Source: a virus. From it: 41,456 nt of DNA. Both the position numbers and the translations under genes were made by a program. Location: the UHGV virus genome UHGV-1460059; one strand, written 5' to 3'. The notes beneath the pieces were generated by a model. It saw nothing but the letters and a program-made list of their open reading frames with translations. It was not told where the DNA came from and ran no database searches. Positions within the stretch are counted from its first letter, which is position 1, and every line of letters starts with the position of its first letter. Positions 3,210 through 41,456 of the stretch are shown here, piece by piece.

Positions 3210-4288
3210 CAGAACGGGTCCTCCTGTACTCTGGCTTTTTTCTTTTTCCGCGCGCCGGGGGCTTCGGGTTCAGGCAGATAAGCATCAGGCGGGCCGACAC
3301 GGATTTCCGTCAGGGTGCCGTTCTGGTCCTGAGTAAACGTGACTTCCGAGACAAGCAGTTCGGTATTGTCGAAACCACAGACTGGATCGAAGACAATCAC
3401 CCGCTGGTTGGGCTGCCACAGCGTACCGTTACCCTGTCGCCAGCCCTGCACCACATAGGTGGTTTCATCCGTCCGCGCCGCCCGTTGTCGGGCTTCAAAG
3501 TCAGCACGCGCAATACAGCCTGCCCCCGTGGCCTGCCCTGTCTGCCTGATATACATCGGACGGTAACGGGCAATAAATGCGTCCTCTGTGCGGGCCCGCA
3601 GCGCGGTGGTGGTGACCTCACCGAAATCATCGTCGTTTCCGGCACGCTGCCCCGCCACCTGGTAAACAGAAAACCGCTCCCGGATACTCTTCTCCGTATC
3701 ACAGGAAAGGATGTTTTCCCCAAGTACCAGCGCGGTATGTGCCCGCGTTGAGCCAATACCGCCAATCACCAGCCTGCCGTGCGGATCGTCGTAAGCCAGC
3801 GCCTGCTGCTGACCGAGTATTTTGTTGATAACCTCAATCACCGTTTCACCGTGATCAGGCTGAACATCAGGAATAACACCCGACGGCGCACCGCTGTTCA
3901 CCACCTCAATGCCGAAAGGCGCAGCAAGCGCCTGCGCAATCTGCACCAGCGAGCGTCCGTTAAACTGTGTCGGTTCGGCTGCACAGTCAATCAGGTCAGC
4001 CGTCAGACTACGTCCGGCAATACCGGTGCTGACCGAACGGGCATCGTAACGAACGGGAGTCGCCTCCACCCAGCCGGTGATCACCAGCTCATCACCAATC
4101 AGCACTTCCACTTTTGAACCGTTTTTAATGCGCGGCTGAAGCGTGGTGATACCCTCATCTCCCGGCCACTGGCGAGTGATCTCCACACTGAAATCCCGCG
4201 CCAGCCGTTCAATACCGGCACCGATGCGCACCGATGTCCAGCCATTCCACTCCCGGCCATTTACCCGTAGCGTGACATTGTCGTTCAT
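3209..4288 (-). CDS. Baseplate hub protein (Mu gp44/P-like)
   Basis: 359-aa ORF between the DNA-circulation-like gene and the spike gene. Confidence 0.5.
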   Translation of the reverse strand: MNDNVTLRVNGREWNGWTSVRIGAGIERLARDFSVEITRQWPGDEGITTLQPRIKNGSKVEVLIGDELVITGWVEATPVRYDARSVSTGIAGRSLTADLIDCAAEPTQFNGRSLVQIAQALAAPFGIEVVNSGAPSGVIPDVQPDHGETVIEVINKILGQQQALAYDDPHGRLVIGGIGSTRAHTALVLGENILSCDTEKSIRERFSVYQVAGQRAGNDDDFGEVTTTALRARTEDAFIARYRPMYIRQTGQATGAGCIARADFEARQRAARTDETTYVVQGWRQGNGTLWQPNQRVIVFDPVCGFDNTELLVSEVTFTQDQNGTLTEIRVGPPDAYLPEPEAPGARKKKKARVQEDPF

Positions 4289-24162: not shown

Positions 24163-24483
24163 TTACAGGCCTCTCTCATGTAACCAGTGGGCTGCACGCA
24201 GCCTGGCGTTTTCCTCACCGGCAAGCAGTGTGCGGATAATCCCGACCGCCTCGCTGTCGTCGTCCTTCACCGCGGTATGAAGCGTTATCCCCCGGGCCAC
24301 GCCACGCTTTATCGTGATGACGCCTTTTTTCTCCAGTGCACGAAGATGCTCTACCGCTGCATTCACTGAACGGTATCCCAGCATGGTTGCCACCTCCTGA
24401 TTGGTTGGCGGAAAGCCACGCTCTTTCTGGTAAGAAATCAGCATATCCAGCACCTGCTGCTGGCATTGAGTTAACGTCGTCAT
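24163..24483 (-). CDS. LexA N-terminal DNA-binding-domain-like protein
   Basis: LTQCQQQVLDMLISYQKERGFPPTNQEVATMLGYRSVNAAVEHLRALEKKGVI resembles the LexA winged-HTH domain. Confidence 0.45.
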   Translation of the reverse strand: MTTLTQCQQQVLDMLISYQKERGFPPTNQEVATMLGYRSVNAAVEHLRALEKKGVITIKRGVARGITLHTAVKDDDSEAVGIIRTLLAGEENARLRAAHWLHERGL

Positions 24484-25133
24484 GCCGCCATCTCCCTGAC
24501 CAGTTTTTCCGCCTGCTGGCGAACCTGCACCAGAAAGGCTTCACCACATGCCTCAAGTTCATCGCGCCCGATGTAGCTGATTGCCGGTCCCTTCCAGGTC
24601 TTGTCGAAAACAGCAATAGCACCAGCGAAGAAAGCGCCTGTCGGCACCTGCTTCTCATCCTTCGGGATAAACCAGGCAGGCAGTTCAAAACCAATACGCC
24701 CGCGAATAAAAGCAATATGGTCCGCATCTTCCGGCCACCACACTTCGCTGGTGGCAGCTTTGATCAGGAAAACATAGCGCCCGCCCTTATCACGCATGGC
24801 ACTGGCATGTTTCATGATGTAACGCATGCCGGTGATGTATTGCCCCTCATGCTGACTGGCGCGGCTGTATGGGGGATTACCAAAGGCAGCACCTTTAAGC
24901 TCCGCAAGACGTTCTGACCAGTCATGCGCCAGCGCGTTGTCTTCCGCCGTGTAATACGCGGCACATTTGGCGTTATCACCGTCAGTGAACAGATCCAGAA
25001 CAAACGGACCAAACAGGGTGTTAATTCCCCAGAAAATGTTATCCGGCGTGCGCCACTGATCTCCCACTTCCTTCAGTTCATGGGCTGGTTTATTCCGCAG
25101 TTCCACCAGCGCCTGGCAATATTTATTACTCAT
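24480..25133 (-). CDS. Phage N6-adenine DNA methyltransferase (Dam-like)
   Basis: NPPY motif (FGNPPYS). Start placed at the ATG at 25133 (MSNKYCQALV…), which overlaps the upstream stop. Confidence 0.7.
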   Translation of the reverse strand: MSNKYCQALVELRNKPAHELKEVGDQWRTPDNIFWGINTLFGPFVLDLFTDGDNAKCAAYYTAEDNALAHDWSERLAELKGAAFGNPPYSRASQHEGQYITGMRYIMKHASAMRDKGGRYVFLIKAATSEVWWPEDADHIAFIRGRIGFELPAWFIPKDEKQVPTGAFFAGAIAVFDKTWKGPAISYIGRDELEACGEAFLVQVRQQAEKLVREMAA

Positions 25134-25627
25134 TAAGCCCCCACGTAATTCCCTGACAGATACCACTCTTCACCCGATGCAGCGTGCTTGCTGCTTTTCC
25201 GTAAGCACCGCTCACGACGCGCCAGAAAATTGTTTCGTTCTGGCTGGGAGTGGCTTTCACGGAATGCCGCCATCCACACGGTTGCAGCACGACGGTATAA
25301 GCCCCTTGACTCCAGTTCTTCCGCCTGGCGGGTCAGGCACAAAATCACCCGGGGATCGTTAGTGCCGACATAGAAATTGCGCGCAGGTCTGGTTTCACGA
25401 ACTGGTTGTGGTTCCGGCTCCTGCGCTCTCTCAGTCAGGCGCGGGAAATGTCTGCGTGTATCCCCTTCACAACGGTGAGCCACACGCCCACTCTGACGTA
25501 ACTTGCTTGCTGACTGCAGAACGCGCTGCCGTGAGTAACCAGCAAAAGCATCCGCAATGTCTCCGGAAGTACACCCCGGATGGGCTTCAATGAATTTCTG
25601 AACGTCATTTAACAGACTCATGATCAC
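25133..25627 (-). CDS. PerC/ANR-like small regulator (tentative)
   Basis: LTRQAEELESRGLYRRAATVWMAAF resembles the PerC-family signature as recalled. Coupled to the replication gene by an overlapping stop/start. Confidence 0.35.
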   Translation of the reverse strand: MIMSLLNDVQKFIEAHPGCTSGDIADAFAGYSRQRVLQSASKLRQSGRVAHRCEGDTRRHFPRLTERAQEPEPQPVRETRPARNFYVGTNDPRVILCLTRQAEELESRGLYRRAATVWMAAFRESHSQPERNNFLARRERCLRKSSKHAASGEEWYLSGNYVGA

Positions 25628-26565
25628 CCCCTGAATCCTGCCGGGATCTGGCTGTAGTCCACGTTGTCGTAACTGGATTTGAAGTACGGGTCTTCGCGTT
25701 TTTCAGTGTACGTGCTTACGGACGGCGATAAGCGCAGGGAAAGCTCATCCCATTTTTCCCGCAGCTTCGACGGGCTGAGCACGTTACGGCACCAGAACGG
25801 ATCGCGGCTGACGCGGCTGTACATCTCGCAGATTTGTTTGTGAGTACGACCATCCTGCACACACATCAGGCGAATTTCGTTTGCCCAGGCTGTCCAGTTC
25901 GGTTCTTTGGGACGAACCACCTCGCCGTCACATTCGGCGGCCTGCTCGTACAGGGCGATGATTTTTTTCCAGAGCCACTGTGCGCAGGTCAAATCATCCT
26001 GCGTTCCCCACTGGCGCTTTTTAGGGCTGAATACAACCGCATCAGGATGGCGAGTTAAAAAATCCTGTTCATCCGTCTGCGTGTCCGGTTGCGAAGCGTC
26101 CGGACGAGAAGTTTTTTTATCTGACGGATCATGTTTTGATTTTACTGACGGATCCCCGCCAGATTCTGACGGGTGAAAACCCGCTTTTTTGCCAGATTTC
26201 GACGCATCAAATTTTGACGGGTCAGATTTTGATGCGTCAGATTTTGACGGGTCAGAATCTGACAGTTGAGAAAATGCCGCTGCCTGAAGCTTCGCAACGT
26301 TAAGCTGATAAACATTCGACGCATTGCGGTTACCCTGGCGACGCGCCTTACGCGTTAACCAGCCTTCTGCTTCCAGCCGTGCGATAGCCGTTCTGACGGT
26401 ACTCATCCCCGCGCCAATCTGGCGGGCAATGGTTTCAATTGATGGCCAGCACACACCTTCGTCATTACTGAAATCAGCCAGGCGGGCCATAATTGCCACG
26501 CTGGATAATTTCATGCCTGATGCAGCGCAACCATCCCATACATAGCCGGTTAATTTAGTGCTCAT
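25624..26565 (-). CDS. Replication initiator (lambda O analogue) with N-terminal winged HTH
   Basis: 313-aa protein; N-terminal HTH (…SIETIARQIGAGMSTVRTAIARLEAEGWL…); central low-complexity DPSKSDASKSDPSKFDASKS linker encoded by a DNA iteron array. Confidence 0.5.
   Translation of the reverse strand: MSTKLTGYVWDGCAASGMKLSSVAIMARLADFSNDEGVCWPSIETIARQIGAGMSTVRTAIARLEAEGWLTRKARRQGNRNASNVYQLNVAKLQAAAFSQLSDSDPSKSDASKSDPSKFDASKSGKKAGFHPSESGGDPSVKSKHDPSDKKTSRPDASQPDTQTDEQDFLTRHPDAVVFSPKKRQWGTQDDLTCAQWLWKKIIALYEQAAECDGEVVRPKEPNWTAWANEIRLMCVQDGRTHKQICEMYSRVSRDPFWCRNVLSPSKLREKWDELSLRLSPSVSTYTEKREDPYFKSSYDNVDYSQIPAGFRG
26119..26265. repeat. Iteron array (candidate origin of replication) inside the initiator gene
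   Basis: Tandem ~15-bp units TTTTGACGGGTCAGA / TTTTGATGCGTCAGA / TTTTGACGGGTCAGA plus degenerate copies (ATCTGACGGATCATG, TTACTGACGGATCCC, ATTCTGACGGGTGAA), flanked by T-runs. Confidence 0.55.
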
Positions 26566-27811: not shown

Positions 27812-28504
27812 ATGAACATAGGAAACCGAGTCAGACAACTTCGCCAAGCGAAGAACATGAAAATCGCCGATCTCGCTGAAGCAATAGGAGTAGATGCGGC
27901 GAACATCTCGCGCTTAGAAACGGGTAAGCAAAAACAATTTACCGAACAAACACTGAGTAATATTGCCAAGAGCTTAGGTGTTGATATTGCTGATCTCTTT
28001 ACCTCTGCCCACAAAAGTAATACTGTATATAAAAACAGTAATAATGAGGATGTTGCGCAGGTGAAGGATGTGTTCCGTATTGAAATGCTGGATATCAGTG
28101 CCAGTGCGGGAAATGGCCTTATCCAGGGCGGTGATGTCATTGATGTGATTCATGCCATCGAATACAGAACTGATAATGCTGTATCAATGTTCGGCGGACG
28201 ACCAGCCAATCACATCAAAGTTATCAACGTTCGTGGGGACAGTATGTGTCCAACCATTGAGCCAGGAGATCTCATCTTCGTTGATGTCAGCATCAATCAG
28301 TTTGATGGTGATGGTATATATGTCTTTGGTTTTGATGACAAAATATACGTTAAAAGACTTCAAATGATTCCTGACAAACTGCTGGTGATTTCTGATAACC
28401 AGATTTACCGTGAATGGGGAATTACTAGCGAAAACGAACACCGATTCATGGTCTTTGGAAAGGTCTTAATCAGTCAGTCGCAAACCCTTAAGAGACATAA
28501 TTAA
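27812..28504 (+). CDS. cI: CI-type repressor (HTH + S24 LexA-like autopeptidase domain)
   Basis: N-terminal XRE-type HTH; C-terminal GDSMCPT (Ser) and VKRL (Lys) peptidase S24 motifs. Confidence 0.85.
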   Translation: MNIGNRVRQLRQAKNMKIADLAEAIGVDAANISRLETGKQKQFTEQTLSNIAKSLGVDIADLFTSAHKSNTVYKNSNNEDVAQVKDVFRIEMLDISASAGNGLIQGGDVIDVIHAIEYRTDNAVSMFGGRPANHIKVINVRGDSMCPTIEPGDLIFVDVSINQFDGDGIYVFGFDDKIYVKRLQMIPDKLLVISDNQIYREWGITSENEHRFMVFGKVLISQSQTLKRHN

Positions 28505-35388: not shown

Positions 35389-35815
35389 TAAAAACCTTAT
35401 CTTACAAATAGTTGGTAATGATGTTGAATTATTTTTTGTTCTTTATGGCTAATAAGATTACATGAAGGGACAACTTCTGACCACCTTAGAAAACACTCAC
35501 TTTAGTAACAAGAGTCAATAATATTGTTGACAAATCACAAAAAAACAAACTTATCCAAAACAATCTGGTTTATCACAAAGCCTCTGTGCATAAATCTGTG
35601 CATAACATCATTTTTACACACATTTTTTTATAAAAATATTTTTTAGCAAAAAATGCTATCTATCTCCGAAACTGCAACCACAAACCATTAATTCCAAATG
35701 AAACTATTTTAAAATAAATAGTAAGACAGTAACAGGACAGAAAAAGTTCCGCAAAAGAGCCGCTTGTAAAATCAACAATATTTGGCTATTTAAATTCAAT
35801 GAATTACATAACTAT

Positions 35816-35847: not shown

Positions 35848-36012
35848 CTTTTTAGTTGTTTGAAGTTCAATGAAGTCTACTAAGCCCACACAGCACAAGC
35901 TCTGCGGGCTTTTTTACGTCTATTGTCGTCCAGTGAGAATTGCTGAGAACTACGAGTTATGGCACCCTGAATGGGACCCACTAAGAAGGGTCCAAAAACC
36001 GAGGGTCCCAAA

Positions 36013-37242
36013 ATGGCAAAAATCGCTAAGAAGCTCACTGACACTGAAATCAAAAGCACCAAGCCAGCCGATAAAGAAATCAACTTGTTTGACGGTGATG
36101 GTCTGATTCTACGAATCGCTCCTTTGGCGAAAGGAGGCAAGAAAAATTGGTATTTCAGGTATGCAGTACCAGTGAGCAAGAAAAGAACCAAAATGAGCCT
36201 TGGGACATATCCTCACCTTACCCTTGCAAGAGCCAGAGCCTTACGTGATGAATATCTCTCCTTTCTGGCAAATGGTGTTGATCCCCAAATCCATAACAAC
36301 GATAAGGCGAAGGCATTAAAGAGTGCTACTGAGCACACTCTCCAAGCCGTAGCGCGGAAATGGTTAGATGAGAAGGTAAAGACATCAGGTATCTCACAAG
36401 ACCATGCAGCAGACATCTGGCGCAGCTTAGAGAGAAATGTCTTTCCCGGTCTGGGTAATGTCCCTATCAATGAGATCCGACCTAAGCTCTTAAAACAACA
36501 CCTTGATCCTATTGAGCAACGAGGCGTATTGGAAACTCTACGCCGTATCATTTCACGTCTGAATGAAATCTTCCGGTGGGCAGCTACTGAAGAACTTATT
36601 GAGTTCAACCCGGCTGACAACCTTGGTCAAAGATTCAGTAAACCAAAAAAGCAAAATATGCCTGCCCTTCCCCCAAGCGAATTGCCAAGGTTTATGGAAT
36701 CTTTGACGAATGCGTCAATCCGGTTGGAAACACGTATGCTAATTGAATGGCAATTGTTGACATGGGTTCGTCCGGGTGAAGCCGTTCGCGCAAGGTGGTC
36801 TGATATTGATACAACCAACAGCATTTGGAACATTCCTGCTGATTTCATGAAAATGAAAAAGCTTCACAAAGTTCCTTTGAGTAAAGAAGCTTTGCGCATC
36901 CTTGAATTAATGAAATCAATAAGTGGGCATAGAGAATGGGTTTTCCCCAGCATAAAAGCGCCTCTTAATCATATGCATGAACAAACAGCCAACGCAGCTA
37001 TCATCCGAATGGGGTTCGGAGGCGAGCTTGTAGCTCACGGTATGCGTTCTATTGCACGAACAGCGGCAGAGGAGTCTGGTAAATTCAGAGCTGAAGTTCT
37101 TGAGGCAGCGCTTGCCCACTCGAAAAAAGATGAAATTATCGCAGCATACAATCGTGCAGAATATCTGATAGAGCGACAGAGTTTGATGCAATGGTGGAGT
37201 GATTACGTTCAAGCTCAAAGATCAAATGCTCTGGTAGCCTAA
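36013..37242 (+). CDS. P4-type tyrosine integrase (IntA-like)
   Basis: ATG at 36013 with GAGGG upstream. N-terminus MAKIAKKLTDTEIKSTKPADKEINLFDGDGLILRI… is typical of P4-family integrases; lies ~165 bp downstream of the ssrA-like fragment. Confidence 0.85.
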   Translation: MAKIAKKLTDTEIKSTKPADKEINLFDGDGLILRIAPLAKGGKKNWYFRYAVPVSKKRTKMSLGTYPHLTLARARALRDEYLSFLANGVDPQIHNNDKAKALKSATEHTLQAVARKWLDEKVKTSGISQDHAADIWRSLERNVFPGLGNVPINEIRPKLLKQHLDPIEQRGVLETLRRIISRLNEIFRWAATEELIEFNPADNLGQRFSKPKKQNMPALPPSELPRFMESLTNASIRLETRMLIEWQLLTWVRPGEAVRARWSDIDTTNSIWNIPADFMKMKKLHKVPLSKEALRILELMKSISGHREWVFPSIKAPLNHMHEQTANAAIIRMGFGGELVAHGMRSIARTAAEESGKFRAEVLEAALAHSKKDEIIAAYNRAEYLIERQSLMQWWSDYVQAQRSNALVA

Positions 37243-37280
37243 GTATCAGAATAGCTAATATAATCCTGAAGGTAAAGAAA

Positions 37281-37697
37281 ATGGAAACCCTATTCAAAGT
37301 TTTTGAAAAATTTAGTTCCAGACCACTTTTTTTTATTTTTTTCGGACTCTCACTTTGTGAATTTTTTCAGAAACAATCTGTTCTGATGAATCCATCAGCA
37401 GATAACATCGCGAAATTATTCGCAGCCATGATATTAGTTGTTTTTTTTACTTGGGGATTTGAATGGCTAATCTTCAAGTTCAATGTAAACCTTGAACCTC
37501 ATGATCAAGGCGATATTGGACCAACAATTGGAACGGCTACTTTAGCTGTATACTTAGTTTATGCCTTTCACTTTCTCAGTGAAAATCCTGAAGCATTAAA
37601 TTTAAAGTTATTAACTAACTCTGGCTTTATATACAGCACAACTCTATTATTATTCTCATTAGAATGCATGAAGCTTAGAAGACTTAAACAAAAATAA
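37281..37697 (+). CDS. Small membrane protein (138 aa), AT-rich island cargo
   Basis: Hydrophobic segments (PLFFIFFGLSLCEFF; LFAAMILVVFFTWGFEWLIF; TIGTATLAVYLVYAFHFL; FIYSTTLLLFSL). Confidence 0.4.
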   Translation: METLFKVFEKFSSRPLFFIFFGLSLCEFFQKQSVLMNPSADNIAKLFAAMILVVFFTWGFEWLIFKFNVNLEPHDQGDIGPTIGTATLAVYLVYAFHFLSENPEALNLKLLTNSGFIYSTTLLLFSLECMKLRRLKQK

Positions 37698-37728
37698 ACA
37701 ACATCATTGTGATGATAAATATAAAATA

Positions 37729-37755
37729 GGCATGGCGAAAAAAAATCACCACGCC
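37729..37755. terminator. Imperfect hairpin between convergent genes (candidate terminator)
   Basis: ggcatggcga-aaaaaaa-tcaccacgcc (8 of 10 pairs); U-rich on the minus strand after the stem. Confidence 0.35.
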
Positions 37756-37768
37756 TAAAATATAATAA

Positions 37769-39517
37769 TTATGGTAGCATCATTGATACATAATCCACAC
37801 CAATCCTTGAGCTATACTGAGACGCTATAGCCTGATATCTTTCTGCATAACCAGTTCTCAGTTGAGATTTAAGTTTGAGTCGGACAGGAACATTTTGCAC
37901 GTTGCCATCCATATTACTTAAAAACACGGCAGAAATAATATTTTTTTCTTCGCCATCAACTGTTGTTCCATGATTCAACACCACCATATAATCAACAACA
38001 GGAAGCGTTTTATCCCCTTCGAAAATAGAGAGATATTTTCTTTGATTTTTATGCATTACATATATATATTTCGAATGTTCAGCAAATGGCAATGCTTTAC
38101 TCTGACTGGCGTTAAAAAGCTCCAGAACTTTAATGAGCCTGTGCGGACTTAATCTTACATGGTGAGGGTCGTTACCCTGAGTAGGAACCAAATCACATGC
38201 CGCAGATACACATAAATACCATTTGTTCGACTCTGTATCAAAGAAAATAGTGCCAGTAGAAATATGACCATCTTCAAAATTCTTTGAAGACAAATTCATA
38301 TTTAAAGCATGATACATTTCGTGATAAGTATCATTATTTGATGGCAGATCCATTTTTGAAGAGCAATATTGGAGCAATGCAGCAACTCCGCTGTTAGCGT
38401 ATTCATTTGAATAGCTATCAAAAACACTTTTGATAAATTCATCCAGCGTATTATTATTTTTAAGTCTTTGATAAAGCTCTTCTGATAAATTACCAAATAC
38501 AAAGTCAATATTTCTACATCTAATATCAGGCGAGTCTGATTTTAATATCTCATTTAACCACGCAGCTTGACCGTAATGATCGTTAGCAAAATGATTTACA
38601 AAAGATAAAGCCTCAGCTTCGATTGCATTCTGAATTTCAGATTTTATTAACTGATAATAAGATGGTTTCCATTCAATGAGAGAATCATTGAGAGTTTGCC
38701 AAATCCTATCTCCATCGTTTTCATGATCATCTTGAACCTTATGAAATAGGGAGACAAAGATATTACCACATTGAATCCATTTTACTCCGCTTTCATCACC
38801 CCGAATGACATTGCCAGATGTGTTGCTAGAAATAATTGCATTTCTAGACACAGCATATTCTGCAATCATTTTTGCAATGAAGTTTTTATCCTTTTGATCC
38901 TCCAACACAGCATCATCATGTATTAATCTTTTAATTCTTCTACAAGGCTTACTGTCTTTAATATAGGCTATTGTTTCATCTCTTGTGAGAGCTTTATTAC
39001 CATTATCATTTAAGTTCGGTAATACAACGTCTTCCCAATAACTTTGGACATCTTCATTATCGTAGTCAATGATCAAGCTGTTGATATCCAGAGCACCTTT
39101 GAGAGTCGATGATATCTGCATCCAAACCGTTTCTAAATTCTCTCTAGTATATATTACAATCATATTTAAATGATCGGAGTCTTTCAAATCTTGTAATAGT
39201 TTAAGTGTTTTATCAGGTGCATTATTATCAAGATGATAATCTACAATAATAAGATCTGATTTTCTAATCCGATCCACATCGAAATTAACAGAACCATTGT
39301 CAACATCACAAATCATATTTTTAGATTGAAAAAAGCTCTCAAGAGTAGCGGCTCGTTTAGATGAGTCAATTTTGTTGTAGTCTAAATCAACTTCGTTATT
39401 CAACGCCCTGATTGATTCAGAATACGTCAGAAAATCGTCATCAATCATGACAACGGAACGAATTGCATTTTCGCAGAAAGTTTTCTGGACAAGAGAATTA
39501 TAATTTGCCACTGTCAT
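37769..39517 (-). CDS. Receiver (REC)-domain protein with ~450-aa uncharacterised C-terminal domain
   Basis: N-terminal REC-like signature: VVMIDDDF (acidic pocket), LIIVDYHL (phospho-acceptor Asp), NMIVIYT (Thr). Start preferred at ATG 39517, 1 nt after the upstream stop; ATG 39535 is the alternative. Very AT-rich. Confidence 0.5.
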   Translation of the reverse strand: MTVANYNSLVQKTFCENAIRSVVMIDDDFLTYSESIRALNNEVDLDYNKIDSSKRAATLESFFQSKNMICDVDNGSVNFDVDRIRKSDLIIVDYHLDNNAPDKTLKLLQDLKDSDHLNMIVIYTRENLETVWMQISSTLKGALDINSLIIDYDNEDVQSYWEDVVLPNLNDNGNKALTRDETIAYIKDSKPCRRIKRLIHDDAVLEDQKDKNFIAKMIAEYAVSRNAIISSNTSGNVIRGDESGVKWIQCGNIFVSLFHKVQDDHENDGDRIWQTLNDSLIEWKPSYYQLIKSEIQNAIEAEALSFVNHFANDHYGQAAWLNEILKSDSPDIRCRNIDFVFGNLSEELYQRLKNNNTLDEFIKSVFDSYSNEYANSGVAALLQYCSSKMDLPSNNDTYHEMYHALNMNLSSKNFEDGHISTGTIFFDTESNKWYLCVSAACDLVPTQGNDPHHVRLSPHRLIKVLELFNASQSKALPFAEHSKYIYVMHKNQRKYLSIFEGDKTLPVVDYMVVLNHGTTVDGEEKNIISAVFLSNMDGNVQNVPVRLKLKSQLRTGYAERYQAIASQYSSRIGVDYVSMMLP

Positions 39518-39518
39518 A

Positions 39519-41237
39519 TTAGAACTCCACTTCATTGAACTGGATCACAAAATTAGCGCCATCTTTTATTAAATAGTTATCGCCTTCATCAGGTTCTGAA
39601 TACCATATTTTATGATGTGCAACAGCAAGGTTTTCTCGACATAGATACAGACCTACCCCATGTCCATTTGCTCTTTTGCTATAAAATAGTTCAAATAGTC
39701 GCGGGATATCATCGGTATCAATTGCCGGACCAGAATTTGCTATGATAACCAAAGAATTCACAAAACCAATCTTTATGAGCCTATTATTTGACAGACTGAC
39801 CCAATACATTGCATTGTTGATAATATTAGTAAAAACAGGATAGATCCTTGATGGTATATCTGTTATTGCGATTTGCTTAAACTCTTCACTAAATTCAATA
39901 GTTATTCGTTGCCGTTCGAAACGCTCCCCAAAGAACTTCAGGACATAATCCATGATATTTTTTCCAGTTATTCTCTGCCTGGATTGATAACCTGATATTT
40001 TCAAAGGTGATAAGAAACGTATTTGTTGAGTAAGCGATCTGTGAGCATTTAACGCCAATGAAAAACCAGGGTGTTCTTTTACAGAAGTAGGAAGAGAGTT
40101 TAGTCCTCTGGTTACCATAGAATCCATTTCTTCAAGTTCATGAGATATTATCTCAACACTAATACCTAACTGTGCAAGCGCGTTTAAACTTTTAGCTTTT
40201 TCTTCAAAATATGAGCGTTCTTCTTCAGATAATGAGAATGCTGAATCTAAGTTTATACCTTCAAATAATCTATCGAGACCTTTTATTATTGATTGATATT
40301 TGAAAGTTAGGGTATCAACTGACTCAACATATAAACTATCGAGCAAATTAAACACATTTTCAATTTGTGAATCATTATCTATTGAATCAACAACTGATAT
40401 AGTTTTAGCATAATAATCACTTCGATCAACCTTTATTTCATCGGCCCATTTTTTTAAAAGAGAATGTATCTTCTCCTCTATCGTGTTATTAAACTTAGTT
40501 AGTTTAGAATTAATAATACCTTGATTTTTTTCAAGGTGATTTTTCGCTGACAATGAAGGCTCAAGTTTATTTAATTCAGAATCAAGTTTATTAATTGCTA
40601 ACTTCATTTGTAGAATATACGCAGAGAACTCATTAAATTTATCTCTGTAGTCTCTATATTTCTCTTCATACATTCCAAGTTTTGGAGGTTTGATAGGCGT
40701 TTTAATTTCACTGCGCAACGCATCTAAGTTTGTAAGATCACTGTCTATAATTTTAAGATAGTTTAAATCTAACGAACCATCAGTTTTATCAAGCTTAGTT
40801 TTCAGCCTTTTAACAGCCTCCAAGGAAGCATCAAGAACTGGTGTCTGATTCTTCAAAGCTTCTGAAAAACTTTTTTGTGTTGATTTTCGAGCTTGTTGTT
40901 GAGCAGATTTTCTTAACTCTTTTTCACGCTTAACTTGTTCTAAAAGCTCTTTACGGTCATCAGAACGTGAACCAAAAAATCTATCAGCAAGTTCAGTTAA
41001 CAAATTAGATATAATAGTTTTCAGTTCTCTTGCAGCCTGGTTTCTTATGAATCCCTCTCTCCCCGACTTATCTTTCAGCTCTTTATTACTGGATTGAGTA
41101 ATTCCAATATAACCAAAAATCCTTCTATTAGACCAATAATATCGCCCTGCATTCCATGAACGTCTTTCTTCTATCTGGAAGAAATCATTATCTACTCGAC
41201 CATAAGGTAATACTCTCAAGCTATCCCTAAAAATCAT
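39519..41237 (-). CDS. Soluble histidine-kinase-like protein (coiled-coil N-terminal region + HisKA/HATPase-like C-terminus), apparently 5'-truncated
   Basis: H-box-like ISHELEEM, N-box NIINNAMYW, G1 NSGPAID, G2 GHGVGLYLC; no TM segments. The reading frame stays open upstream of the first ATG to 41363 inside the IS end, with no start codon. Confidence 0.5.
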   Translation of the reverse strand: MIFRDSLRVLPYGRVDNDFFQIEERRSWNAGRYYWSNRRIFGYIGITQSSNKELKDKSGREGFIRNQAARELKTIISNLLTELADRFFGSRSDDRKELLEQVKREKELRKSAQQQARKSTQKSFSEALKNQTPVLDASLEAVKRLKTKLDKTDGSLDLNYLKIIDSDLTNLDALRSEIKTPIKPPKLGMYEEKYRDYRDKFNEFSAYILQMKLAINKLDSELNKLEPSLSAKNHLEKNQGIINSKLTKFNNTIEEKIHSLLKKWADEIKVDRSDYYAKTISVVDSIDNDSQIENVFNLLDSLYVESVDTLTFKYQSIIKGLDRLFEGINLDSAFSLSEEERSYFEEKAKSLNALAQLGISVEIISHELEEMDSMVTRGLNSLPTSVKEHPGFSLALNAHRSLTQQIRFLSPLKISGYQSRQRITGKNIMDYVLKFFGERFERQRITIEFSEEFKQIAITDIPSRIYPVFTNIINNAMYWVSLSNNRLIKIGFVNSLVIIANSGPAIDTDDIPRLFELFYSKRANGHGVGLYLCRENLAVAHHKIWYSEPDEGDNYLIKDGANFVIQFNEVEF

Positions 41238-41358
41238 TAGTCCTGCATACTTTTTGGCCTTAAGATCAAAGTGGGAATGTTCACGTTCAGTATGTGATGT
41301 ATTTTGTGAAAGGAATTCAAACGTTCCTATCTGAAGCTCAAATGGGCCGACCCCTGCG

Positions 41359-41456
41359 TGATCCTACCCACGTAATATGGACACAGGCCTAAGCGAGGTT
41401 CTTGTTTTCAAATTGTTCCGGACTGAGGCCGCCACACCAACTGTGCCGCCGCCACC
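41359..41456 (-). mobile_element. IS3-family insertion sequence, terminal ~100 bp (inverted repeat plus 3' end of the transposase gene), continuing beyond the window
   Basis: Terminus TGATCCTACCCACGTAATATGGACACAGGCC. Minus-strand translation of 41454..41387 gives …WRRHSWCGGLSPEQFENKNLA*, the conserved C-terminus of IS3-family OrfB. Matches the IS3 right end as recalled. Confidence 0.7.

Follow-up and report, generated by a model that had tools for sequence, protein, structure and literature searches.

At which site does a lambdoid prophage start its replication when an initiator is its sole replication gene, and by which route might the host helicase be brought there? These questions are raised by an O-like gene in the virus genome UHGV-1460059 (41,456 nucleotides; 'the window' hereafter denotes this whole analysed stretch of DNA), the middle of which is occupied by an array of short palindromic repeats. 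The early region near this gene shares 98-99% DNA identity with temperate phages of Shigella and Escherichia coli belonging to the SfV/SfII/SfIV (e14-like) group, the structural half of the window matches SfV, and in SfII, SfIV and other phages the counterpart gene is annotated as 'DNA replication protein O', 'O protein family' or 'primosomal protein'. We consider it likely that the repeats constitute the replication origin of an SfV/SfII-type (e14-family) lambdoid prophage, located inside the linker-coding part of the O-like gene; an origin within the O gene, as in lambda, had been proposed in the initial annotation of this DNA, and it is supported by homology to O, by the linker position of the repeats, by their conservation, by constraint at the DNA level and by an AT-rich neighbour. 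The gene and the parts of its product were delimited as follows:

25624-26565, minus strand: O-like replication initiator gene, 313 amino acids (PHROG 391, 'replication initiation O-like')
26269-26565, minus strand: N-terminal winged-helix DNA-binding domain, codons 1-99, the presumed reader of the iterons (AlphaFold2, Foldseek)
26086-26268, minus strand: predicted disordered linker, codons 100-160, whose DNA carries the candidate origin (AlphaFold2 and alignment with lambda O)
25735-26079, minus strand: C-terminal helical domain, codons 163-277, homologous to the lambda O C-domain (predicted local distance difference test score, pLDDT, mostly >90; BLASTP)
25627-25668, minus strand: C-terminal tail, codons 300-313, DNVDYSQIPAGFRG, matching the C-terminus of host DnaT

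The protein matches PHROG 391 from end to end (E 1e-135), and BLASTP against lambda O (NC_001416) returned an alignment of residues 70-277 (E 4e-26, 31% identity over 216 amino acids) in which the C-terminal halves match well and the repeat-encoded stretch stands opposite the lambda linker; the four iterons of lambda, annotated at lambda 39034-39118 (NC_001416), fall in O codons ~117-145. Pfam places HTH_36 at residues 23-70, its lambda-type Phage_rep_O was not matched, and an NCBIfam search of the O-like protein gave no specific family. In an AlphaFold2 model built with 31 homologues, the N-domain is folded as H-H-H-H-E-E-H (pLDDT 64-85), and its best Foldseek matches in the Protein Data Bank (PDB) are dimeric MarR/ArsR-type winged-helix proteins, several of them solved on palindromic DNA, which fits a dyad-symmetric site for this domain; MarR chains were matched by phmmer as well. 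The linker (residues 101-160) reaches a pLDDT of 27-42 (~30), and on this model the origin-like DNA is confined to a part of the protein that would tolerate almost any sequence. A PDB sequence search and Foldseek of the AlphaFold2 model yielded nothing informative for the C-domain, and the C-terminal tail is loose in the model.

The repeats themselves are arranged as one tandem array and three outlying sites, none of which is assigned to a strand:

26193-26269: tandem array of five 15-base-pair (bp) iterons, with cores at 26200, 26215, 26230 and 26245 and a degenerate one at 26260
26167-26176: spaced iteron-like site TGACGGGTGA, one mismatch to TGAYNNRTCA, inside the conserved 60-nucleotide (nt) segment described below
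26146-26155: spaced iteron-like site TGACGGATCC, holding GATC at 26151-26154
26122-26131: spaced iteron-like site TGACGGATCA, a perfect match to TGAYNNRTCA, holding GATC at 26127-26130

Tandem Repeats Finder reports a 15-bp period over 26193-26256 (4.3 copies, 81% matches, consensus CAGATTTTGACGGGT) with a 30-bp period (88% matches) as the alternative for the array, and a separate repeat search recovered a matching family at 15-bp spacings together with outlying copies. Read on the plus strand, the 10-bp cores are CGACGCATCA at 26200, TGACGGGTCA at 26215 and 26245, TGATGCGTCA at 26230 and the degenerate TGACAGTTGA at 26260; their consensus is the dyad TGAYNNRTCA (TGAY-NN-RTCA), TTTT runs lie between the cores, and units 2 and 4 of the array are mutually inverted, with a 38-bp near-palindrome at 26201-26238 (centre 26215-26224). 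The outlying copies (at 26167, 26146 and 26122) are spaced by 21-33 bp. With up to 3 mismatches allowed, the array 15-mer has 7 occurrences in the window, four of which are in this region, as against 1.19 expected, a number reached in 0 of 100 shuffles. The gene strand of the array has the sequence TCTGACCCGTCAAAA..., translated as SDSDPSKSDASKSDPSKFDASKS... (codons ~100-125); the outlying sites extend to codon ~149, and all units are contained within codons ~100-149 of 313. The initial annotation had described 15-bp units with TGACG(G/C)GTCA-like palindromes at 26100-26290, flanked by T-runs and encoding a low-complexity Ser/Asp/Lys linker in mid-gene, and each element of this description was borne out (five tandem and three spaced units, TTTT runs between the cores, codons within the predicted disordered linker).

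The single-stranded DNA (ssDNA) fold of the array region has a z of -4.0 (cruciform/hairpin potential), which arises because the repeats are dyads and is not independent evidence. The palindromes likewise produced a match to the Rfam family mir-5880 at 26190-26264, which at 30.7 bits (gathering score 97) is sub-threshold and was rejected as a known RNA family at the array. Off-frame open reading frames (ORFs) of 55-60 amino acids with QILT.. repeats run over the array (26136-26303, plus strand; 26142-26324, minus strand), and we regard them as by-products of stop-free repeats and not as genes. Between the array and the conserved segment lies a terminator-like hairpin, CGGGTGAAAACCCG followed by T6 (26170-26183, plus strand, antisense to O); a promoter/terminator scan found nothing conserved, and this hairpin is not kept in the Klebsiella homologue.

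Two further features (again without strand) adjoin the array:

26119-26178: conserved 60-nt origin core segment, sense strand TTTCACCCGTCAGAATCTGGCGGGGATCCGTCAGTAAAATCAAAACATGATCCGTCAGAT
26104-26150: candidate DNA-unwinding element, the most AT-rich and least stable stretch of the gene

Across the 63 loci compared for it, the 60-nt segment has a commonest third-position base frequency of 0.78 (vs 0.52 in the N-domain), and the codons of four conserved residues (F=TTT, D=GAT, V=GTA, S=TCA) are each used in 100% of cases. The segment is kept family-wide, even in loci with differing tandem units, and it contains the three spaced sites and two GATC (26127 and 26151); at least two GATC are present in the origin segment of 54/63 loci. 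The Asp codon at the conserved GATC sites is always GAT, and it is mostly GAC in the array units. The most AT-rich 30-mers of the ORF (70-73% AT) and its least stable 40-mers start at 26103-26117, which places the AT-rich stretch just after the array when O is read 5' to 3', as in ori-lambda.

The relatives through which these features were followed comprise five annotated phage homologues, 80 viral contigs and 79 loci (one genome per species), 73 of the latter with an intact gene and N-domain identities of 60-100%. Absence of the repeats from functional homologues had been named at the outset as a finding that would speak against an origin; we ran this check, and the repeats are present in all 73 relatives with varying copy number, the linker showing a 5-codon (15-bp) period in 73/73 loci. 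Unit number ranges over ~3-8 across species, and among viral contigs with identical N-domains the 4-unit form is found in 66, and 3, 5 or 6 units in single cases, the amino-acid changes among them mapping to the palindrome centre. Within the linker motif [DE]-x-S, Ser is encoded by TCA in 357/417 cases (86%), as against 251/1404 (18%) elsewhere in the same genes (Fisher p 1e-144), and the middle codon is purine-ending in roughly 90% of the Pro/Ala/Gly/Thr cases. Relatedness was controlled for by inspecting invariant N-domain residues, whose synonymous codons proved to be scrambled (commonest codon 0.31-0.79, typically ~0.45).

Furthermore, diverged N-domains are paired with other palindromic cores at a retained 15-bp period, that is, the array co-varies with the DNA-binding domain of the initiator. 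The core is TGAACGTTCA in Trabulsiella (L146) and TGAACCTTCA in both Citrobacter sp. NCU1 (L147) and Stx2a KH16-043, where Asp gives way to Glu at one half-site and a synonymous change, CCG to CCT, at the other restores the dyad; in the Erwinia/Edwardsiella lineage TTGACCCCTCAA occurs in both orientations, encoding IDPSN or VEGLT. Within TGA-N4..N7-TCA sites, N7 is T in 8/10 of those with N4=A, though T is rare at N7 overall. We read these sequence patterns as selection on the nucleotides of the array and not on the peptide. In two E. coli chromosomes (L135 and L162; match 3501-3737) the first 79 residues of the initiator are fused in frame to an unrelated 455-amino-acid frame, an arrangement that resembles what a deletion would leave of a related prophage.

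If lambda O is taken as the model, the palindromic units would be occupied by dimers of the N-terminal winged-helix domain, which would assemble into an O-some; on the model of ori-lambda, the AT-rich segment beside the array would then melt, helped by transcripts that run rightward through the gene from the promoter on the cro side. In a last and more tentative step, host DnaC would place host DnaB on the opened origin, no loader being supplied by the phage. The lambdoid placement of an origin within O is itself ordinary; here it is combined with a distinct iteron grammar and with a conserved candidate unwinding segment that bears GATC.

The last of these steps leads to the second question, since the absence of a P, DnaC or DnaB gene downstream (already remarked upon in the initial annotation) holds by downstream gene content and also window-wide, where tblastn queries (lambda P, DnaC of E. 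coli, and a pair of DnaC/DnaB seeds from phages) gave a best E of 1.2. Sorted by their downstream genes, 6 of the 73 loci have a lambda P homologue (P is found in relatives L153-160), 8 have DnaC (7 also with DnaB; DnaC+DnaB in L145 and L147-152) and the rest are without a loader. An 'O-only' class has been delineated in 34/314 Enterobacteriales lambdoid phages, LLS among them (Genome Res 2025, PMC12315714), where its replication is stated as not understood and recombination-dependent growth is proposed for it. The module of the window belongs to this class by definition, the O homologue being its sole replication gene.

In what would, by analogy, be the classical lambdoid logic, the origin is read by the N-domain and the helicase-loading partner is contacted by the C-domain. 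Among the relatives the N-domain and the array move as a unit, and different C-terminal domains are swapped in behind them: a lambda-O-type C-domain is present in the window, L087, L090, Proteus, Providencia, Erwinia and Edwardsiella, a DnaD-like one ('ITDQAKQVL.HLN...') in most Enterobacteriaceae loci, Citrobacter phiNP and Yersinia YeP3, and a third type in L147 and Stx2a KH16-043.

The extreme C-terminus of the initiator points to a possible partner in the host. The window protein ends in SQIPAGFRG and E. coli DnaT (MG1655) in SQIPPGFRG (8/9 identical, both at the true C-terminus); hhalign of the O family with the DnaT family aligns the last 14 columns alone (E 0.0011), and DnaT residues 159-179 align end-to-end with the last 21 amino acids of several O proteins (E 1e-5). 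Neither the 31 O homologues compared nor the DnaT orthologues vary at the tail residues P, G, F and R; other O tails read ...ERDINAISRPDTSIPPGFRG, E. coli prophage versions read ...VNHISEPDTEIPPGFRG, and in loader-less initiators the motif is ...[IVLT]P-x(1-3)-GFR[GST], irrespective of C-domain type. On the side of DnaT, the invariant tail residues are R160, D161, S166, P168, D169, I172, P173, G175, F176, R177 and G178, and the tail equals the folded core in conservation, being kept in orthologues at 32-38% identity (...IPDGFRG, ...IPYGFKG). The O tails of Kluyvera bear a suggestive likeness to the DnaT tail of Kluyvera, an impression on which we build no conclusion about tails following their hosts. 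Homology of whole domains between O and DnaT was ruled out, as hhalign aligned the tail only and the window protein has no match to Pfam DnaT (PF17948). Judged by these alignments, the database name 'primosomal protein I' for the O-like protein is misleading, in that it would reflect a grafted short motif and not domain homology; annotations as 'primosomal protein (I)' probably stem from the tail. HMMER with DnaT additionally retrieved many mobile-element-like proteins of 270-400 amino acids that have a complete DnaT C-domain and an ...IPxGFRG tail (P0277, P0288, P0306, P0331, P0335, P0342, P0350, P0298, P0345 and P0363; N-termini MAGDWIKMR..., MANSWLRLWHDMPNDPKWRTI...), and on sequence grounds the DnaT C-module appears to be widely reused by putative initiators.

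The distribution of the tail follows that of the loader genes: of the 73 loci, 40 have the tail and no loader, none has both, 14 have a loader and no tail, and 19 have neither (tail vs loader, Fisher p 2e-6, ignoring phylogeny). Without a loader, the tail sits on three unrelated C-domain types, namely the lambda-O type (the window), the DnaD-like type (many loci) and the mEp460 type, and tail-less versions of the same domains are accompanied by lambda P (L153-160) or DnaC+DnaB (L147, Stx2a KH16-043). The window and L153, which has a lambda P gene, are ~75% identical in their O C-domains up to residue 284 and end in unrelated tails. The O protein of mEp460 (L167:1778-2596), an O-only phage, combines the third C-domain type with exactly the tail of the window (...VDYSQIPAGFRG), and in L147 and Stx2a KH16-043 the mEp460-type C-domain lacks the tail and is followed by DnaC-like or DnaC+DnaB genes. 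From these tail swaps (window/L153 and mEp460/L147) we infer that the choice of helicase-loading route lies in the extreme tail.

P-linked O proteins (L153-L160, lambda) carry a tail of the form W(N)....W...L (L153 ...GGHWNSPEAWENTL; lambda, L002:387-1286, ...DLTNTDWIYGVDL), and its sequence and location at the place of the DnaT-like tail make it possibly a P-binding element. In the mEp460 initiator the N-domain is unrelated, and the same linker position is taken by a separate set of repeats of 21-24 bp (consensus GGTAGTGCAGAAAATTCACCA); downstream lie YfdN-like and Dam genes as in the window, with a recombination joint inside the 3' end of O. The class with neither tail nor loader has a ~50-amino-acid extension ending in ...RWNAIWKEQAQRGNQGEAA or ...AWAGIWQQAAEQAAKE, on DnaD-like and lambda-O-type C-domains (L095, L096, L103, L119, L121, L131, L133, L136-L144, L158 and L164).

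Taking the similarity and the distribution together, we put forward as a reasonable, still tentative possibility that the tail ...YSQIPAGFRG copies the C-terminal tail of host DnaT and so binds the partner of that tail (candidates are PriA, or DnaB-DnaC). It is conceivable, and we propose it with somewhat more reserve, that O-only and wider mobile-element initiators load the host helicase through DnaT mimicry, by means of a ~10-20-residue tail (...IPxGFRG) placed on at least three unrelated C-domains. In preprimosome structures of 2026 the DnaT C-domain is docked on PriA and forms an ssDNA filament, and the recruitment of DnaB/DnaC by PriA/PriB/DnaT is described as 'unknown' (PMC13377028). If the mimicry is true, the extreme tail of DnaT would be a contact element of the preprimosome, which would address the handover from DnaT to DnaB/DnaC.

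The genes around the initiator bear on both questions:

25133-25627, minus strand: YfdN/PerC-like gene (Pfam PerC; PHROG 'transcriptional activator'), directly 3' of the O-like gene
24480-25166, minus strand: Dam-type N6-adenine methyltransferase gene (Pfam Dam, E 1e-45)
27812-28504, divergent from the minus-strand early genes: cI-type repressor

The local order on the minus strand is cro, a cII-like gene, an ORF of 112 amino acids, the O-like gene (whose stop overlaps the start of the YfdN/PerC-like gene), the PerC/YfdN-like and Dam-type methyltransferase genes, a gene like the LexA DNA-binding domain, RusA and KilA-N. The YfdN/PerC-like gene follows O in just 10 related loci, and in Klebsiella phage 1 LV-2017 and Citrobacter phiNP the methyltransferase comes directly after O without it; the methyltransferase is the first or second gene downstream of O in at least 33 related loci. 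This recurrent Dam-type neighbour and the conserved GATC pair hint, by analogy, at a methylation-sensitive control of the origin like that of oriC or P1 oriR; over the whole window GATC is not enriched (163 vs 160 expected). The early-left operon contains DUF2303, an HD-type hydrolase, unknown proteins and an integrase, and no helicase, primase or recombination module was found in it. Chi sites (GCTGGTGG) number 17 in the window, as against 1.5 expected, and lie between 8794 and 27263, 14/17 on the minus strand and most within 18.6-27.3 kb; with 17 Chi and no recombination (Rec) module, the window phage falls into the 'no Rec module, high Chi' class of PMC12315714.

A 9-mer scan of the window for DnaA boxes found none within 9 kb of the candidate origin. 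The sole three DnaA-box-like 9-mers of the window (TTWTNCACA) lie within 36 bp at 35585-35620, near the integrase end of the prophage and adjoining the junction with another element. The last ~5.5 kb (~35900-41456) represent this different integrative element, with a CP4-57-type intA and a histidine-kinase-like gene; the sequence is 99.8% identical to phi467 and CP-1639 at their ends, and 35971-37242 holds a second integrase gene.

Several observations weigh against the interpretation given so far. For the origin, the AT-rich stretch is just 70-73% AT and is interrupted by iteron-like sites, which makes it less clear-cut than that of lambda, and the 15-bp spacing puts neighbouring sites on nearly opposite faces of the helix, unlike in lambda, so that the geometry of the O-some may differ; a literature search, in which the SfV genome paper was not covered, returned no paper showing binding, unwinding or autonomous replication in this phage group. 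For the tail, the match between the window and DnaT is just 9 residues long (pairwise E 0.009), the tail/loader counts are phylogenetically non-independent, and the 19 loader-less relatives without the tail, which carry another C-terminal extension (...RWNAIWKEQ...), indicate that the tail is not the sole route. Moreover, the papers covered by the literature search gave no account of a function of the extreme DnaT tail or of a DnaT tail in phage O proteins, and PMC13377028 favours the N-terminal domain of DnaT, not its tail, as the recruiter of DnaB/DnaC.

The repeats could be nothing more than a slippage-prone, low-complexity Ser/Asp/Lys linker whose DNA is functionless, with an origin that lies elsewhere or is not sequence-specific, and the predicted disorder of the encoded linker, its variable residues and a copy number that varies as expected from slippage all agree with such a view. 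We find it hardly credible, given that synonymous sites are far more conserved here than in the folded N-domain, that amino-acid changes hit the centre of the palindrome while TGA...TCA is retained, that one lineage holds the same DNA unit in both orientations with different peptides, and that in the TGAA..TTCA lineage a synonymous CCG to CCT restores the dyad. A function at the DNA level might still be one of control, the units being O-binding sites for autoregulation, titration/handcuffing or a roadblock, and replication proceeding mainly from recombination displacement loops (D-loops) via host PriA. The surplus of Chi (17 vs 1.5 expected, 14 in one orientation), the lack of a Rec module in the window, the recombination-dependent growth suggested for the class by PMC12315714 and a DnaT-like tail that would also suit a PriA-centred pathway lend this some weight; we nevertheless judge it quite unlikely, because the full ori-lambda layout (iterons, AT-rich conserved segment, O homologue) is kept family-wide, in relatives P or DnaC/DnaB accompanies the same module of N-domain and iterons (implying a classical origin), and late recombination-dependent replication is compatible with early firing of an origin, lambda doing both.

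With the repeats taken as an origin, the DnaT-like tail has to be weighed against loading that does not involve it: the C-domain could bind host DnaB-DnaC or DnaA directly, in the manner of Rep proteins of iteron plasmids, or a P-type loader could be borrowed in trans from a further lambdoid prophage resident in the host, the tail serving as a tag for degradation, regulation or localisation. The C-domain is ~75% identical to one partnered with lambda P and could still bind P in trans, the tail match of the window is short and 19 loader-less relatives do without it; the lack of DnaA boxes within 9 kb of the origin stands against this explanation, as do the occurrence of the tail in 40 loader-less loci on three unrelated C-domain types and in 0/14 loader loci, and the distinct W....W...L tail of P-linked O proteins at the same place, which points to the tail as the partner-specifying element. 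As to borrowing, SfV, SfII and SfIV were isolated as phages themselves, and dependence on a helper prophage is not reported in PMC3851460. On balance, tail-independent loading seems to us somewhat unlikely. That the YfdN/PerC-like protein (25133-25627) is a new helicase loader replacing P we consider very improbable: it occupies the position of P with a stop/start overlap with O, has an N-terminal winged-helix-like part and travels with the O tail in Stx2c phages and mEp460, but it matches PerC/ANR transcription-regulator families and follows O in just 10 related loci, most O-only modules continuing with the methyltransferase or other genes, and as a hidden loader it was rejected on these grounds.

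An origin at this place would be useful for annotation, mini-replicons and incompatibility studies in the serotype-converting phages of Shigella, and it is not surprising. A DnaT-type tail on loader-less initiators, with another tail on P-linked ones, offers a concrete and testable mechanism for the O-only class, to which about one in ten enterobacterial lambdoid phages belongs, and it draws attention to an invariant and apparently unstudied peptide of DnaT.

Compared with known systems, the candidate origin resembles ori-lambda in its location in the linker-coding middle of the initiator gene and in the succession of dyad direct repeats and an AT-rich stretch, and the initiator resembles lambda O in having an N-terminal DNA-binding domain and a homologous C-domain, in a gene that comes after cII in the rightward early operon. 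It differs in its 10-bp palindromes per 15 bp and three spaced sites (lambda has four 18-19-bp iterons, 20-24 bp apart), in an N-domain of the HTH_36 family, in the conserved GATC pair of the AT-rich part, in the lack of a P gene and in a tail that is DnaT-like, unlike the ...DLTNTDWIYGVDL of lambda O. In iteron plasmids, Rep proteins (pSC101 RepA, R6K pi, RK2 TrfA) use host DnaB-DnaC without a loader of their own, and the iterons are 17-22 bp long and lie outside the rep gene, usually with DnaA boxes. A winged-helix initiator, direct repeats beside an AT-rich region and the presumed reliance on the host helicase/loader would be shared with these plasmids; the repeats of the window differ by lying inside coding sequence with no DnaA box near. 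Dam-dependent origins carry GATC in their unwinding regions (the 13-mers of oriC, the 7-mers of P1 oriR), a likeness to the conserved GATC in the AT-rich origin part with its recurrent Dam-type neighbour gene, although the candidate origin of the window has just two GATC sites and the window no overall enrichment.

The Stx phages 933W and P27 have six iterons in place of the four of lambda, with O gaining or losing residues accordingly and being active as a dimer (PMC7466680); iteron number varies between relatives here as well (3-8 units), with the difference that 933W/P27 keep lambda-type iterons and a P gene, and that here the iteron type and the helicase-loading route differ. With the O-only phages of PMC12315714 the window shares the single O homologue, the absence of loader, helicase and Rec module, and abundant oriented Chi; that study mentions neither DnaT nor PriA, and the DnaT-like tail and the anatomy of the origin are new relative to it. 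Finally, O proteins are unlike DnaT in lacking its N-domain, its acidic linker and its three-helix ssDNA-binding domain, and like it in their ends: the last 9 residues of the window protein are nearly identical to those of E. coli DnaT, relatives reach up to about 17/20, and GFRG and GFRGAK endings occur in both families.

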